Of a DNA stretch of 64,000 nucleotides, positions 14,570-64,000 are shown one piece after another. The notes below the pieces were generated by a model. That model had not been told where the DNA came from, made no database searches, and saw only the letters and a program-made list of their open reading frames with translations. Where the stretch lies: the NCBI GenBank assembly GCA_017499595.2, contig CM039004.1, positions 372,001 through 436,000 of the forward strand, written 5' to 3'. How positions within the stretch are numbered: the first letter of the stretch is position 1; the number at the start of each line of letters is the position of its first letter. This stretch comes from Psilocybe cubensis (Eukaryota). The position numbers and the translations under genes are program-made.

Positions 14570-16437
14570 ATGCGGAACAAGGCTGAGCTCAGTCCCTATC
14601 CCCGAGACCAATATCAGCACTGCATCCCAAGATTCATTCTACGAAATTTTTTGGAAGGACCTCGTAGCTTCATGTATGTTGTAAAACTAAAATTTCTTGG
14701 AGCAATGACTGCTGAAGACACAGCTGATCTGCATCTATTGCTACCAGTACAAAACGTGATCGACTCAAGTTGTTTCGCAAAATAAAAAAGAAAGGGGAAG
14801 AGCATGATACCGAACGGATATCGTTCTATCACATACCTTCAGGTATGCTGTACAATCGGCCAATAGCGAAGGTGTATGGATCCACAAATCTCTACCGCGA
14901 CTTCTCAAACCCCATAGACGTTGACCACCTGGAACGTCAATTTTCAAAGCTAGAGCAAGAAGCTTCGCTAGCAATAAAGGCCATATATCGTGGGATCCAT
15001 CAACAAATGTTTACTTTATCACGGAAAGAGCTTGCTACGGTGCGAAAGTTCATTTTTCTGATGCACTTTCGCAACGATGCGGTTTCATCGACCTATTTCC
15101 ACGAGAACAATCCTACCAATGCACCTCTCGTTGACTGGATTAGAAAATACAAAGAGACTCGACAGCTCAAAACCGACGTCGACGTTTGGAAGGATGGTCT
15201 AAAATACTACCTCAATACTCCACATCACGAGATAGTCGCAACCGGAGAGCGACTCCGGGAAAGGTACGGGGAATTCAGGCTCCAAGAGATGCTGAGGAAA
15301 CGACTCGACCCAGACATCGAGGAATGGTATGCCATTGACTACGAAAGTCTTGCGAATTACTTCTTCCTCGGTGTCTGGGAAGCGGCGGACGACTCTGACT
15401 TTGTGTTAAGTGGGAATGGATTTGGGCTATGGGAGGGGTTGATATATGGAAGTCCGGGGGCCCATAGACTTTATGTCGTGAGCCCCCGGATCGTCATCGT
15501 TCTTCGCCGGACCTTCCTCCACCAACCACACTCTAATGACCCTTCTATCCTTTACAGCTGTCTTGCTGATATCCCCATTATGCCTCCGAACATCAACTAC
15601 GCAGACCCCAGTGCTTTTGAAAATCTCGACGACAGCGATCCGACACTTTTGAGGAATATACGCGACGCATATCGATGCTCAGAGCAGGCCCAGAAGGACC
15701 AATTTACGTTCAGAATTACCAAGCTATCGAAAGCTCAGACATACGCCGTCAATGAGGTAACAATGATGAACGCTAATCTTCATCCCGAGGGCTCTCTCAC
15801 CTTCGCCTCTCCTGCAGCAATGCTCGACACACTCCAGTTATATATGGCCTCTCACAACACATTTCTTGGTGGGAAAAGAAGATTATTTATGCCACTTGTG
15901 CAACAGTTGGTTGGGCTCTGCTGCCAGGATTCTTCCCCAACCACTCAGGCGACGCTAGATTTTCCTTGGCACGCTGACACAGACGCTGATCGACAGCTAC
16001 ACATGTTCTTACGCTTCATAGTTGCCAATTCCGTTTCATTCCCTTCTTCATATAATCGTGCATACATTATCTATCATATGTCAACCGACATCCCCTCCCT
16101 TTCCAATCCAGTGTCAAGTAAAATCCGGGAGATTCAGAGAGAAGCGGTTCAAGCTCTCCGGCATATCCTTGATCCACCCCTTCTTCCCTGCGCCAAATCA
16201 GACTCTTCTCTTTCCCCGCGAAATATTGTGGAAACTCTACCCAACGACGAATCAGAGTTATTCTTCTCGTTAGTTGGCCATCAGATGAACCACCTGCAGG
16301 TTGGCAAATACACCAACGACATTCTGGCCAATATTATCTATGAGGCTTCAATTATTGGAGTCACTCATTGGATTGCTAATAATAGGCCTGACGTGCTCTT
16401 TGAACTGGTAGGAAATTGGGCCACTGTAGTAGCCTAA
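14570..16437 (+). CDS. DUF4238 domain protein (~600 aa, one intron 14674-14747)
   Basis: N-terminal QHCIPRFILRNF, then NLYRD, LERQFSKLE..AS, RKFIFLMHFR, FVLSGNG and VVSPRIVIVL. These match the DUF4238 motif pattern as I recall it (H.IP.F.L..F ... E..FS..E ... F..SD.P ... P.SP). Confidence 0.8.
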
Positions 16438-59358: not shown

Positions 59359-60081
59359 AGGAGATGGAGGAGGAATGCATCGAATTATTCATGGCTTTTG
59401 GCATGTTCTGCATTCAGCTTTTCAATATGACACTCATGCAACTTGAAGTTGTATTTCTGTTAGCGGAACGGCTGAATTCCAACTTTCAGGTCTCCCGCGT
59501 GCGCAACCCGCAGCTACGCTGTAAATGGCCGCCGCGTTCGCGAATAGTCACCGGTAGTGCTTGAAAGTGTATGGTCATTGTCGTGTCACCTATCCCAGGC
59601 TTGCCAGTAATGGAGTAAGTCGAGTAAGTCTGGTCTAAGCAAGTAAGAACTCAGCTGAACTCAGGTCATACTACAACGGTTCTCTTCGCTTCATGACCAA
59701 TGGTTAGCCTGCCAGGCCGTAGGAAAGGTGACCGAGATATCTAATCCTGCTGGCACTTAAGGTCTGTACCGATTTTGCATACGACAAATGCCCCCATATA
59801 TGCCCATGCGCCTGACACTAGAATTGCAAGTTGCGCTACCTGGGTGACCTAGAATAAGTGCTGAGTACGTCCGAGAAGTGTTGTTGACGTTGTATCGCAG
59901 CTTCGAGTGTCGAGAATCGAGTCTGCTCGGACTGTCCCGTAGCAGCTTCACGCCAAGAATGCCTTGTTCCGCGACGATAATAATATTCCTCGCCGTTGGA
60001 ATGAACTACGTACGACAAATGGTGATCTAACAGTAATGGGAATAGCTGCTATGACTTGTATCGGAGGCATGCAGGTGCCGG

Positions 60082-60089
60082 TATAAAAG
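60082..60089 (+). promoter_or_regulatory. TATA box of Cys-rich secreted gene copy 1 (conserved at ~62075 in copy 2)
   Basis: ggtataaaaggcgaaaaaaa is present ~80-95 bp upstream of both ATGs. Confidence 0.6.
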
Positions 60090-60161
60090 GCGAAAAAAAC
60101 CGTGCAGAGTTTAGCGACAACCACTAAACTTGATTTTCCACTTCAGGATTATCTCCTAAAT

Positions 60162-60734
60162 ATGCGTTCAAATTTGTTCCCCATGCGCATCCTCTCTGCC
60201 GTTGTATTAAGCGCTGCGTTCCTTGCATCTGCGCATATGACAGAAACCCAGGATGTAAACTCACCAGCGTAAATACATCGCAAGGTTAGGCTGTCTATAC
60301 TATAGCTCACAATCTGCCCCCGCAGTGCTCACGCAGTCGCTGGAAACAACGATATCGACAGCGCCACCGACGAACACACGCTGCACTCCGCGAAGTTCCA
60401 CCACGACATACAAGCAGCACAAAGATGTCCTGAGGGACTCACACAATGCCTCCAAGACTGCAACCGGTTCGACCCTACCAGCCATCAAGACGGCGAGACG
60501 GGTGCGTGGCTCGGGTGCCGTGCCTCCTGTAGCTTGCTCTGCACCCCAGAGCGAGGGGGCTGCTACAAAGGGTACTGCTGGGCCGGATGCGCGACCGGAT
60601 TCCCCCTCTTTGAGGGATATGAGTGGTGCTACACGACGAAGAGCTACAGCCAGAGCTATCAGTATGTTACGTGCCGCAGCGATGCTGAGTGTAATGTCAC
60701 TTGGAAGTGCGCGGGGCCGTGCGCCGCGTTTTAA
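60162..60734 (+). CDS. Small secreted 14-Cys protein with Tha p 2-like C-terminal domain, copy 1 (171 aa; intron 60269-60325)
   Basis: Signal peptide MRSNLFPMRILSAVVLSAAFLASA. Mature region CPEGLTQCLQDC...CRASCSLLC...GGCYKGYCWAGC...EWCYTTKSYSQSYQYVTCRSDAECNVTWKCAGPCAAF. Confidence 0.88.
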
Positions 60735-61450
60735 AAGAATAATTGGGTAACATTTGGGCGTGAATGGAAACGGTATATTGTAACTTTTTATTGTGTCTTG
60801 GTCAAATTTTTCTTGAATATTGCATATAAAAACAATTTTGTCAAATGACTTGGAACTGCGCGCTTGCCACCAGTTAGGGGTATGACACCATCATGTGACT
60901 TACGCGTCTAGACCTGTTCCCACGATATATGACACAGTGTCTTTTCCGGCGAGAGTTTGAAAGTACTCTTTGTTTGAGGACGTCTTGTAGCCTCAAAATC
61001 TAGGCCGCCCGGGTGCATCAAATTAGCCGATCAGTTTGGATACTATAATACAATCGCATGCATGTCCCAACCCCTCTGCGCTCCCTCCCCCTGTATCCCG
61101 GCACCTAATGGGACGCCTACGAGATCAAGAAACTCATTATTGCTGCACATTTGATTTGGTGAAGACCATCTCTTTTACTATAGTAATTGGTTTTTCCAAA
61201 GAACCTGGTCATTAATCGGTCAAATTGCCTGTTTATATTATGATACTATTAACCTAGTTGTCATGATCCACAAAGTGAAGGTAGTTGGCCAGATAGTTAT
61301 ATGTAGTAGTATACCAAACACATTACGACGTAACATGGAGATATAGAATCCTTTTTGAGAAAACCGATAGAAAGGTTTCTAGAGGATAAATCGATACAAT
61401 GTTAGCAACTTTGTTGAACAATCACTATTTCACCTTGAGTTAGATTGAGA

Positions 61451-62994
61451 TACTCATGCCACTTGAAGTTGTATTTGTGTTAGCGGAACGGTTGAAAGGT
61501 TGAAAGTGATCATTTTTTAGCCTTCAACATGGTCGTGTTTGCGAATAGTGACCGGTAGTTGTTGAAATCGAACTGCCTTCGATGTGTCACATTATCCTAG
61601 GCCTGCCAGTAATGAAGTAAGTCTGGTCTAAGAAAGTAAGAAATCAGCTGAGCTCAGGTCATAACTCAAAGGTTCTCTTCGCTTCATAACCAATGGTAAC
61701 CAATGGTCAGCCTGCCAGGACGCAGGCAAGGTGGCCAAGATATCTGGAACCTAAATTCTATATCGATATTCCAGACGGCAGAGAACCTACATATGTCCCT
61801 GCGCCTGACACTAGAATCGCAGGTCGCGCTACCCGGGTGACCTAGAATAAGTGCTGAGCCCGCCCGAGAAGTGTTGGTGACGTTGAATCGCAGCTTCCAA
61901 TGTCGAAAATCGAATCTGTTCGGATTGTTCCGTAGCAGCTTCGAGCCAAGAATTCCTTGTTCCGCCATGATAATGATAGTCCTGACCGTTGGCTCAAACT
62001 ACGTACGACAAATACTGATCTAACGGTAATGAGAATATCTGCTATGATTTGTCTCGGAGGCGTGAAGTTGCAGGTATAAAAGGCGAAAAAAAAACGGGCA
62101 GAGTGCAGCAAACAGCTTCGCTTGCTTTCTACCTCACCACTCCTCTGTTAAATTGAAGCAATTGACACTATGCGCGCAACTTTCTTCTCCATGCGTATTG
62201 TCTCTGCCATTGTTTTGAGCGCCGGGCTCCTTGCATCTGCACACACCATGGAATCCCAGGAAACAAGCTCACAAGCGTATGTACATTGCAAGATTATTTC
62301 TTTGGCACCTATATCTCACAATCCGCCCCACAGTGCTCACTCCATCGCCGGAAACAGCGACATGAACGGTGTAACTGACGAACACACACTACACTCCGCC
62401 AAGTTCCGTCGCGACACACAGGCAGCACAGAGCTGCCCCGAGGGACTTTCGCAGTGCCTTATCGGATGTAGCCAGTTTGACCCTACCAACTATCAGGACG
62501 GCGACTCCGGGGCGTGGGCAGGATGCCGTGCCTCCTGCAGCTTGCTTTGCAGCCCGGCGCGCGGGGGCTGCTACAAAGGATACTGTTGGGCCGGATGCGC
62601 CACTGGAGTCCCTCTCGTTGAGGGATCCGAGTGGTGCTATACGACGAAGAGCTACAGTCAGAGTTATCAATATGTTGGGTGCCACAGCGATGCTGAGTGC
62701 AATGTCAATTGGAAGTGCGCGGGGCCGTGCGCCGCGTTTTGAAAGAGTAATTGGGGAACAGTGGGGCGCGTGTGAGAAGGGTTTTGTCACTTTATGTCGT
62801 GAATGGGTAAAATTGGCTCTGAAAAACTGTGTGTAAAAACAAAAATGTAACAAAGTATTGAATTTTGTCAAACAAGGACTGCTGAATGCTTTGCGCGCTT
62901 GCCACCAGTTAGGGGTATGACACCGTCATGTGACTTACGCGTCTAGCCCTGTTCCCACGGTTTGCGACATGTATCTTCCCGCCGAGAGTTCGAA
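61451..62994 (+). repeat. Segmental duplication, copy 2
   Basis: Colinear with 59431-60961 in both non-coding and coding parts. Confidence 0.92.
62170..62742 (+). CDS. Small secreted 14-Cys protein with Tha p 2-like C-terminal domain, copy 2 (171 aa if the 57-bp intron 62277-62333 is spliced)
   Basis: Paralog of 60162-60734 with the same intron position and all 14 Cys. KFRR dibasic site before the Cys-rich region. Confidence 0.88.
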   Translation: MRATFFSMRIVSAIVLSAGLLASAHTMESQETSSQAYVHCKIISLAPISHNPPHSAHSIAGNSDMNGVTDEHTLHSAKFRRDTQAAQSCPEGLSQCLIGCSQFDPTNYQDGDSGAWAGCRASCSLLCSPARGGCYKGYCWAGCATGVPLVEGSEWCYTTKSYSQSYQYVGCHSDAECNVNWKCAGPCAAF

Positions 62995-63790
62995 TAGTGC
63001 CGACTTGGTGGCCGAATAAGCGCCAAGGTACCTCCAGGGTACCTCCCCCTGTCATTGTTCCCTTCCGCCATGGCTCTTATCAAATATGCGAATAATCGCG
63101 CGCACCCGTCTTTCCCAGTGTCGACGAGACGCCGTCGATCCTCCCGCCTGTGCCCTTTTAGACCATCTGTTGCACGGCGTACTTGTAGCAAAGAAACGGT
63201 CCCCTGAGGCTGACGCGCACAACTTTGTCCCAGGCTTTCTTGTCATCTAGTCAGCATAGCGCATCGCGTAACTATCCGAGATAAGCCATCTTATAATTGC
63301 AGCAATTCTAGACGGCATTAGCTCACGGTTTATCAGGCCATTTTTATGGCAACCCCAACATTCGCTACCATCTGACATGTTACGGATAATCAGTTACGCG
63401 TCGATGCCTCGATGCAGCAGACCGGTCTCAAACAGCAAGCAAGTATTACGTGTCCGACGTGCACTTATGACAGACGTTTACAAACACAGGGGGAGCACTC
63501 ACAACGTCGAAGCCACCAAGGTCCTCCACGCTTCTATTTACCAGTTCTACCACCTCTTTCTCCACCGATACGTCCCCAGGGACCACCACCGCCCTGCACC
63601 TGATTCTTTCCACAATCTCCGAGCTCACTCCCTCTATCTGCATTTGGTTGGAGGGAAGGTCGTTTATGCCGAGGTCGTAGTCGTCAGTAGCAATGTTGTA
63701 GCTCGGCCGATCCCGCGCGCGGCACCTGTGACGACTGCCACCCGCGGGCACGCGAGGTGTTGTCTCAGCGGGAATCGGAACGCCTGGTCT
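62995..63790 (-). pseudogene. Short-chain dehydrogenase/reductase (acetoin/diacetyl reductase-like) pseudogene
   Basis: RVAVVTGAARGIGRA, frameshift, then IATDDYDLGINDLPS...GDVSVEKEV..LV..SVEDLGGFDV, then MVANVGV with an apparent further frameshift, then RGPFLCYKYAVQQMV*KGTGGRI (in-frame stop), then GAYSATKS (YxxxK). Homology is lost at ~62995. The 5' limit is approximate. Confidence 0.85.
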
Positions 63791-64000
63791 TGAAATCCCG
63801 CGTAAGCCGAGCGTGATTGTAGTAGAAATCATCGCCCTGGTTCCTGAAGGTAGGCTAGCTCTTGGATATAAGGCAAAACGGGCGCGATAAATATATTTAT
63901 CATCATCATTAATGCTTTGCTTCTATGCAGGGCGTCTGTGCGATACTTATTACAATCGCGGGGACGCAAAACCAGTTGGAATTAAACGAAATCATCCCTC

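Follow-up and report, generated by a model that had tools for sequence, protein, structure and literature searches.

Two tandem Psilocybe cubensis genes predicted to encode secreted homologs of the moth allergen Tha p 2

Results

Two genes in a tandem duplication

This study concerns two neighbouring genes, gene 1 and gene 2, in a stretch of 64,000 nucleotides (nt) of Psilocybe cubensis DNA (NCBI GenBank assembly GCA_017499595.2, contig CM039004.1, positions 372,001 to 436,000 of the forward strand). The whole stretch is referred to as the window, and all coordinates are positions within it. A first-pass annotation had described two paralogs at 60162–62742 whose products end in a cysteine-rich motif preceded by a separate 6-Cys module, and had pointed to a likeness of the C-terminal part to the moth allergen Tha p 2. 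Both paralogs were present at these positions, with the module and the exact motif.

Genes 1 and 2 lie on the + strand in a ∼2.0-kb tandem duplication with one gene per unit, in which the members of the repeat families are spaced 1993–2035 nt apart. Unit 1 (59429..60990) comprises the promoter, gene 1 and its 3′ flank, and was recognized from the direct-repeat families D1–D6. Unit 2 (61449..62994), which comprises the promoter, gene 2 and its 3′ flank, was also recognized from direct-repeat families. The upstream flank of unit 1 is 76–82% identical to that of unit 2. A TATAAAAG box is located at 60082..60089, 80 nt 5′ of the gene 1 ATG, within repeat D1, which is 85% identical between the units. 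The box is conserved in unit 2 at 62075..62082, 95 nt 5′ of the gene 2 ATG. As judged from the sequence, both are putative TATA boxes. No gene copies beyond genes 1 and 2 were found in the 64-kb window.

Exon 1 of gene 1 (60162..60268) opens with the ATG at 60162 and encodes a signal-peptide-like stretch of ∼24 amino acids (aa) with an Ala-x-Ala end, followed by the start of a linker. A 57-nt intron in phase 2 (60269..60325, GTAAAT..CCGCAG) separates it from exon 2 (60326..60734, translation P0001), which ends with a TAA stop at 60732–60734. Gene 2 is built the same way, with exon 1 at 62170..62276 (ATG at 62170, signal-peptide-like stretch), a 57-nt intron at 62277..62333 (GTATGT..CCACAG) and exon 2 at 62334..62742 (translation P0002, TGA stop at 62740–62742). 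Both introns have GT..AG ends and the same length and phase, and both reading frames are open. In each case a spliced coding sequence (CDS) of 516 nt yields a 171-aa protein with 14 Cys, six in the upstream module and eight in the C-terminal domain.

The public model of gene 1 (P0005, UniRef A0A8H8CIL6_PSICU) starts at the second Met and has the same first intron with the same junction. After residue 88 of its own numbering it follows the +1 frame of the same DNA, and the entire Tha p 2 domain is lost. Since the frame-shifted part is a +1 reading of the same DNA, a spurious splice was introduced in the model and the gene itself is not faulty. A protein ∼79% identical to gene 1, as expected for the gene 2 product, was absent from a search of 5.8 billion clusters, and gene 2 seems to be without annotation in every protein source. 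With gene 1 mis-modelled and gene 2 missing from public data, censuses based on proteomes undercount small genes of this type.

Protein architecture

Each product consists of a hydrophobic N-terminus, an acidic linker, a 6-Cys module and a C-terminal 8-Cys domain. The exon-2 products are identical at 106/135 residues (79%). The hydrophobic N-terminus with its Ala-x-Ala end resembles a signal peptide by eye, which suggests that the proteins are secreted. The acidic linker is formed by ∼10 residues from exon 1 and 32 residues from exon 2. In gene 1 the 6-Cys module occupies P0001 residues 34–72 (60426..60542) and has the spacing C-x6-C-x3-C ... C-x3-C-x3-C in alignment A2. The gene 2 module (62434..62550) was assigned using A2 and a hidden Markov model (HMM) of the module. 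The Tha p 2-type 8-Cys domain covers P0001 residues 77–135 in gene 1 (60555..60731), as found by database search, pairwise alignment and HMM, and 62563..62739 in gene 2, as found by comparison with gene 1 and by HMM.

The module HMM matched the two window proteins at E 2.8e-21 and 2.6e-20, values that are partly circular because both proteins are in the training set. Among the fetched proteins it produced no match below E 1 outside the subtype that combines both modules, and none to an animal-labelled protein.

Relationship of the C-terminal domain to Tha p 2

The C-terminal domain was subjected to an exhaustive HMMER search of 1.84 billion representative proteins. Tha p 2 of Thaumetopoea processionea (P0054, UniRef A0A0K2W8M0, 'Allergenic protein Tha p 2') was matched at E 2.6e-15, and the search returned 221 representative clusters (50% identity) at E ≤ 1e-3, 60 of them at E ≤ 1e-10. 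A profile search matched P0054 at E 3.5e-19. In a pairwise alignment gene 1 and P0054 share 36/58 residues (62%) at E 9e-23, including one identical run of eight residues. The likeness noted in the first-pass annotation was thereby borne out. An HMM of the domain was positive in 253/254 fetched proteins, the exception being the mis-modelled P0005. Pfam scans assigned no family to either window protein at E ≤ 1, nor to Tha p 2 itself at E ≤ 0.01. By sequence comparison, the C-terminal 58 residues are a true homolog of Tha p 2.

Like the mushroom proteins, Tha p 2 is a small protein with a signal peptide and the domain at its C-terminus, and 8/10 of its Cys are kept in register in the mushroom proteins. 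The remaining two, which the mushroom proteins lack, form an extra pair: the first precedes the domain and the second stands two residues ahead of the conserved Trp. The extra pair is present in most insect-labelled members (moths, midges and aphids) and in rotifers, and is missing from the fungal proteins and Folsomia. A model of Tha p 2 given in the available text of PMC11335235 pairs the first and eighth Cys (C1–C8). Those two moth Cys are also missing in Folsomia and in other fungal members. The missing pair looks like a subtype difference more than a ground for excluding the mushroom proteins from the Tha p 2 family. A second difference is the 6-Cys helical-hairpin module, which the mushroom proteins carry in the same place and which is missing from Tha p 2 and all animal-labelled members. 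Setal location and binding of immunoglobulin E (IgE) are established for the moth protein alone; what links the mushroom proteins to it is sequence likeness.

Fungal relatives

Another P. cubensis protein, automatically named 'Allergen Tha p 2' (P0003, 230 aa), has the same two-module core and matches gene 1 with 63% identity across 93% of the query. It is encoded at a different locus. P0003 has an N-terminal extension of ∼100 aa that comprises a two-Cys motif and a linker rich in Gly, Ser and Val. The extension is common to Gymnopilus and a Kalaharituber-labelled protein, and the window genes lack it. The window genes are additional members of a family already implicit in this database name for a paralog.

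In A2 (columns 150–200), P0003, P0004, P0045, P0048 and P0059 show the extra N-terminal motif (Cys ... Trp-x-Trp ... Cys) with a low-complexity linker after it. The motif was observed in several agaric-type members as well as the Kalaharituber-labelled protein, and not in the window genes.

Proteins of 121–129 aa from Mortierellomycota, represented by Podila humilis (P0006), Linnemannia elongata (P0047), L. gamsii (P0050) and Mortierella alpina (P0056), consist of a signal, a 6-Cys module and an 8-Cys domain as in the window proteins. P0006 matches gene 1 with 55% identity across 79% of the query. These proteins belong to a different phylum, are missing the acidic linker, and some have extra Cys in the first module.

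Short matches to the window genes, at 60621–60664 and 62566–62598, were observed in contigs of other runs with the same species label, where they give way to different sequence. The pattern points to two or more additional paralogs at other sites of that genome; one sits on a 124-kb contig. No RNA run was listed for the region of genes 1 and 2. Two of the runs, which we guess to be RNA, contain only 33–44-nt matches, and the loose ends assign their contigs to other paralogs, with depths of 271 and 38.

Distribution of the family

Carriers were compiled from taxon-labelled members, with lineages checked in the NCBI taxonomy; most family members have no label. The fungal carriers are P. cubensis, P. 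cyanescens, Gymnopilus dilepis, Podila humilis, Linnemannia elongata, L. gamsii, Mortierella alpina and Lichtheimia ornata, plus Kalaharituber pfeilii (Pezizales) by label only. The first three represent two families of Agaricineae. Among animals the domain is carried by the moths Thaumetopoea, Eumeta and Helicoverpa; by flies of the Sciaroidea, namely the gall midges Sitodiplosis and Contarinia and the fungus gnat Pseudolycoriella; by the bugs, with four aphid genera and the mirid Apolygus; and by the springtail Folsomia, the oribatid mite Medioppia and the bdelloid Rotaria. One amoebozoan, Paradermamoeba, is represented by a single transcriptome in which contamination is possible. The expectation that relatives would be mostly arthropod thus holds among the named ones.

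The two-module subtype, with the 6-Cys module ahead of the Tha p 2 domain, was found in A2 in agarics, one Pezizales-labelled protein, Mortierellomycota and label-less proteins. A metagenome scan identified 13 loci with the domain, one of which (L002) has the two-module form. In two other metagenome loci, L010 (2813–3177) and L013 (3785–4286), the domain changes reading frame beyond HMM position ∼17. Such a split suggests an intron within the domain, where the window genes have none. In prokaryotes, 74 pattern matches in genome contigs were obtained and none was upheld by tblastn, a weak negative since a single peptide pattern was used.

The Kalaharituber-labelled protein was considered as a possible contaminant from an agaric. 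At only 46–55% identity to the agaric proteins, it is not a close contaminant. The available portion of the paper on the Kalaharituber genome does not mention contamination (PMC7898904).

The available part of PMC11335235 describes Tha p 2 as exclusive to Thaumetopoea and as lacking any domain known to InterPro. A literature search for 'Tha p 2' returned papers that are, by title, all on caterpillars or zootoxins, and a search for 'ACYPI50196' returned no paper. A search for 'Psilocybe cubensis' with small secreted or cysteine-rich proteins gave nothing relevant among the matches listed.

A FastTree analysis of the 248 usable domains placed the agaric core (6 rows) beside Linnemannia and two label-less proteins with a Shimodaira–Hasegawa (SH)-like support of 95. 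A tree of the two-module proteins (103 columns) was mostly unresolved. One clade of all 14 two-module proteins was not rejected by the approximately unbiased (AU) test (p 0.30). The data are compatible with a single fungal subtype, and no donor or direction was derived from the trees.

Age of the duplication and residence in the genome

Over exon 2, genes 1 and 2 differ by a synonymous divergence (dS) of 0.77 and a nonsynonymous divergence (dN) of 0.11, giving dN/dS 0.14. The ratio is alike in the linker, the N-module and the C-module, and no part evolves faster. The duplicates are old and under purifying selection. The description of the genes as recently duplicated could not be upheld at a dS of 0.77 over exon 2 and 79% aa identity.

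The upstream flanks (59429–60161 and 61449–62171) are 76–82% identical, which is near the value for the coding exons (82%). Third codon positions differ in 57/172 codons, and the Nei–Gojobori (NG86) synonymous divergence is 0.48 per site. Set against this divergence, the flank identity makes the promoters look more conserved than synonymous sites.

Genes for an F-box/WD40 protein, an S28 peptidase, GMC oxidoreductases, Vps10, a mitochondrial carrier and others surround the two genes. The G+C content (GC) of the CDS is 0.57, compared with 0.52–0.575 in neighbouring fungal genes. Two other runs under the same species label also cover both genes, at ∼2% differences, on contigs that continue into the flanks. 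An 8491-nt contig extends from upstream of 59400 through gene 1, and a 2051-nt contig spans 60709–62738. The only breaks fall where the two 3′ ends are identical.

Domain identity between the window proteins and named animals has a median of 0.60 (range 0.48–0.67). Between animal orders the median is 0.55, with a maximum of 0.69, and between the window proteins and Mortierellomycota or Mucorales the median is 0.57. A profile this flat, both between kingdoms and between animal orders, is the expected outcome when a small disulfide-locked domain is strongly constrained, and it is silent on recency.

Predicted structure

AlphaFold2 was used to model the exon 2 product from a 120-row alignment. 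The mean predicted local distance difference test (pLDDT) score was 75, reaching ∼90 or more across most of the Tha p 2-type domain. The model shows a disordered linker, two predicted helices in the 6-Cys module (38–46 and 57–71) arranged as a helical hairpin, and a beta-rich C-terminal domain. A model of the domain by itself gave a pLDDT of 84.5 with three main strands.

Foldseek searches of the PDB returned nothing at E ≤ 0.001 with either the full or the domain-only model. In wide VIA-align searches the helical hairpin (residues 33–73) was the sole match of the full model, at Z ≤ 4.1. The domain-only model gave a best Z of 2.8, to single beta-propeller blades, and 9/48,161 chains at Z ≥ 2, which leaves a new fold unproven. 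As modelled, the fold of the domain may or may not be new. ESM Atlas was also tried on P0001; its best score was 0.82, to 'IDI-2' clusters of Ascomycota, and was rejected as below a meaningful level.

The sole PDB sequence match to the domain was fibronectin type II, which was not significant (E 0.12 with the single protein and 0.19 with the profile). It aligns on the Trp-Cys-x-Thr-Thr ... Tyr-x-x-Cys stretch with three Cys in register. Fibronectin type II has two disulfides, and the alignment disagrees with the connectivity predicted for Tha p 2 in the available text of PMC11335235. Fibronectin type II or kringle-like entries were not listed in the Foldseek searches of either model or in the VIA-align search of the domain.

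The N-module was compared with the alpha-hairpinins nigellin, luffin P1 and BWI-2c, which share the paired C-x3-C and the predicted two-helix hairpin. The module adds a third Cys pair, and no sequence similarity to them was found. Four hairpinin-type entries (Jug r 2 leader, nigellin-1.1, luffin P1 and BWI-2c) were recovered at Z 3.5–3.9, tied with generic hairpins. The likeness to alpha-hairpinins is one of design and not of membership.

Position, composition and partners of the domain

The domain ends 1 residue short of the C-terminus in both window proteins, and within 8 aa of it in 233/253 family proteins. Aromatic residues make up 21% of the domain in gene 1. The family has a median isoelectric point (pI) of 6.4, a near-neutral value that sets it apart from cationic membrane-active peptides. 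In Pseudolycoriella hygida the domain is a C-terminal appendage on a PLL-type beta-propeller lectin and on a BSP peptidase (P0091 and P0178); the Atlas clusters closest to the PLL-type propeller are mostly bacterial. Saposin B and cystatin domains are further fusion partners (P0152 from Folsomia candida and P0086 from a metagenome). Dibasic sites are present on the N-terminal side of the domain in 65/204 proteins, compared with 24/204 after shuffling. Gene 1 has no dibasic site ahead of its modules.

Known chitin-binding modules (CBM14 peritrophin-A and CBM18 hevein) gave no Pfam match to the window proteins at E ≤ 1 or to Tha p 2 at E ≤ 0.01. This makes a known carbohydrate-binding module less likely and leaves glycan binding as such unaffected.

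Discussion

On balance we favour a joint explanation, which we consider fairly probable as a whole. In it, genes 1 and 2 are intact genes of a Psilocybe-type agaric and appear to be long resident there. They encode homologs of Tha p 2, are old duplicates under purifying selection and belong to a fungal two-module subtype, and their C-terminal domain would serve as a binding module. Taken by itself, the last part is tentative. It is suggested by the composition of the domain, its C-terminal position and its fusion partners. Outside the cell the domain may act on its own as a very stable module that binds a conserved ligand other than protein, perhaps a glycan such as chitin. Fungi, arthropods and rotifers make chitin, and since all of these carry the family, chitin is the obvious candidate. 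Released from the mushroom, such a small and stable protein would then act on the surface of the hyphae or in their surroundings, possibly in wall protection or defence. The identity to insect proteins appears to reflect constraint on a compact disulfide-locked domain and no recent transfer.

Several observations weigh against this joint explanation. An IQ-TREE analysis was performed on 74/248 rows (all 30 labelled and 44 chosen unlabelled rows) over 58 columns. The resulting domain tree is largely a polytomy in which neither the agaric nor the Mortierellomycota rows form clades. In one supported clade (98/89), Podila, Mortierella alpina and Lichtheimia are grouped with the fungus gnat Pseudolycoriella and label-less rows. 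The patchy fungal range would also fit acquisition by agarics from another fungus. Neither Pfam nor the fold searches tied the domain to any carbohydrate-binding family, and the same facts fit a stable toxin or inhibitor. In the available parts of PMC11335235 and PMC13532929, the function of Tha p 2 is stated to be unknown.

With at least 221 clusters spread over fungi, several arthropod orders, rotifers and an amoebozoan transcriptome, Tha p 2 belongs to a wide domain family without a name, which merits a family model and a solved structure. The scattered range, together with the fusions to lectin, peptidase, cystatin and saposin domains, makes the family a tractable case for the spread of small secreted modules among soil eukaryotes. 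The 62% identity and the eight-residue run shared with a clinically relevant allergen raise the possibility of IgE cross-reactivity, which would be relevant to mushroom growers and handlers. Likeness of that order usually prompts testing for IgE cross-reactivity.

Several older transfers among soil and litter eukaryotes (early-diverging fungi, agarics, springtails, mites, gall midges, fungus gnats, aphids and rotifers) could have placed the family where it is now found. In that case a donor resembling Mortierellomycota would have supplied the agaric genes, and at least some animal genes would be of fungal origin. We regard this as possible though doubtful. The first-pass annotation had held that a broad vertical range across fungi with a species-congruent tree would refute transfer. 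The fungal range is in fact patchy and the trees unresolved, which leaves room for older transfers between kingdoms. The named carriers are scattered from three agarics to the bdelloid Rotaria and an amoebozoan transcriptome, and Pseudolycoriella is involved twice, once in the 98/89 clade with Podila, Mortierella alpina and Lichtheimia and again through its fusions to the BSP peptidase and to a propeller that lies near mostly bacterial clusters. Several of these animal groups are known to receive foreign genes. However, 58 columns are too few for deep branches, and the amoebozoan match, coming from a transcriptome, may be contamination. An ancient origin with many losses, or misses in annotation, would give the same pattern. 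A stronger version is unlikely, in which the domain is an undescribed small disulfide-rich fold and a portable binding module that moved horizontally, probably repeatedly, between fungi and associated small animals, from springtails, oribatid mites, fungus gnats, gall midges and aphids to bdelloid rotifers. Were it true, the moth allergen and the Psilocybe secreted proteins would share fungal ancestry and might share IgE epitopes.

The proteins may instead be defence effectors, that is, secreted protease-resistant toxins, inhibitors or antimicrobials directed at fungivores or microbes. The first-pass annotation had suggested a role of this kind, as a defence toxin, lectin or antimicrobial factor. 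It is compatible with a binding module, and we hold it to be plausible but less than probable. The founding member comes from defensive urticating setae, as described in the available text of PMC11335235. The N-module has the alpha-hairpinin layout and recovers four hairpinin entries (Z 3.5–3.9), but these are tied with generic helical hairpins and no match exceeds Z 4.1. The excess of dibasic sites in the family suggests processing of a pro-peptide as in many toxins; gene 1, however, has no such site ahead of its modules. Fusions to cystatin and saposin domains and the presence of several paralogs per genome would also suit a defensive role. Against it, the domain is near neutral and not cationic, and purifying selection is uniform at dN/dS 0.14, unlike that expected of effectors in an arms race.

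That the mushroom lineage recently acquired a Tha p 2 gene from an arthropod, with a recent duplication thereafter, is very improbable. The annotation had proposed either transfer or strong constraint, and it is the second part that stands, in line with the medians of 0.60 and 0.55 given above. Recent transfer could draw on the 62% identity between mushroom and moth over 58 aa, on named relatives that are mostly arthropods, and on named agaric relatives from three species only. That degree of identity across kingdoms equals the identity among animal orders, though, and the duplicates have diverged to dS 0.77. Paralogs and relatives occur in P. cubensis, P. cyanescens and Gymnopilus, which span two Agaricineae families, and both the 6-Cys module and the lack of the extra Cys pair are common to Mortierellomycota and not to insects. 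Base composition, including GC, also shows no anomaly.

An artefact, whether arthropod contamination, mis-assembly or dead pseudogenes, is the least credible explanation, for although P0005 is frame-shifted without the domain and no public protein represents gene 2, the genes lie between ordinary fungal genes on one 64-kb stretch, both recur in two other runs on contigs that extend into the flanks, their frames are intact at dN/dS 0.14, and the frame-shift of P0005 is a fault of the model.

Other features of the window

Domains like those of the psilocybin pathway were absent from the long open reading frames (ORFs) of the window. The downstream neighbour of gene 2 (63446–63922, − strand) opens with Thr-Gly-x3-Gly-x-Gly, a stretch typical of short-chain dehydrogenases; the ORF piece that was tested had no Pfam match. 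A 569-aa open frame at 14728–16434 on the + strand matches DUF4238 at E 1.6e-20.

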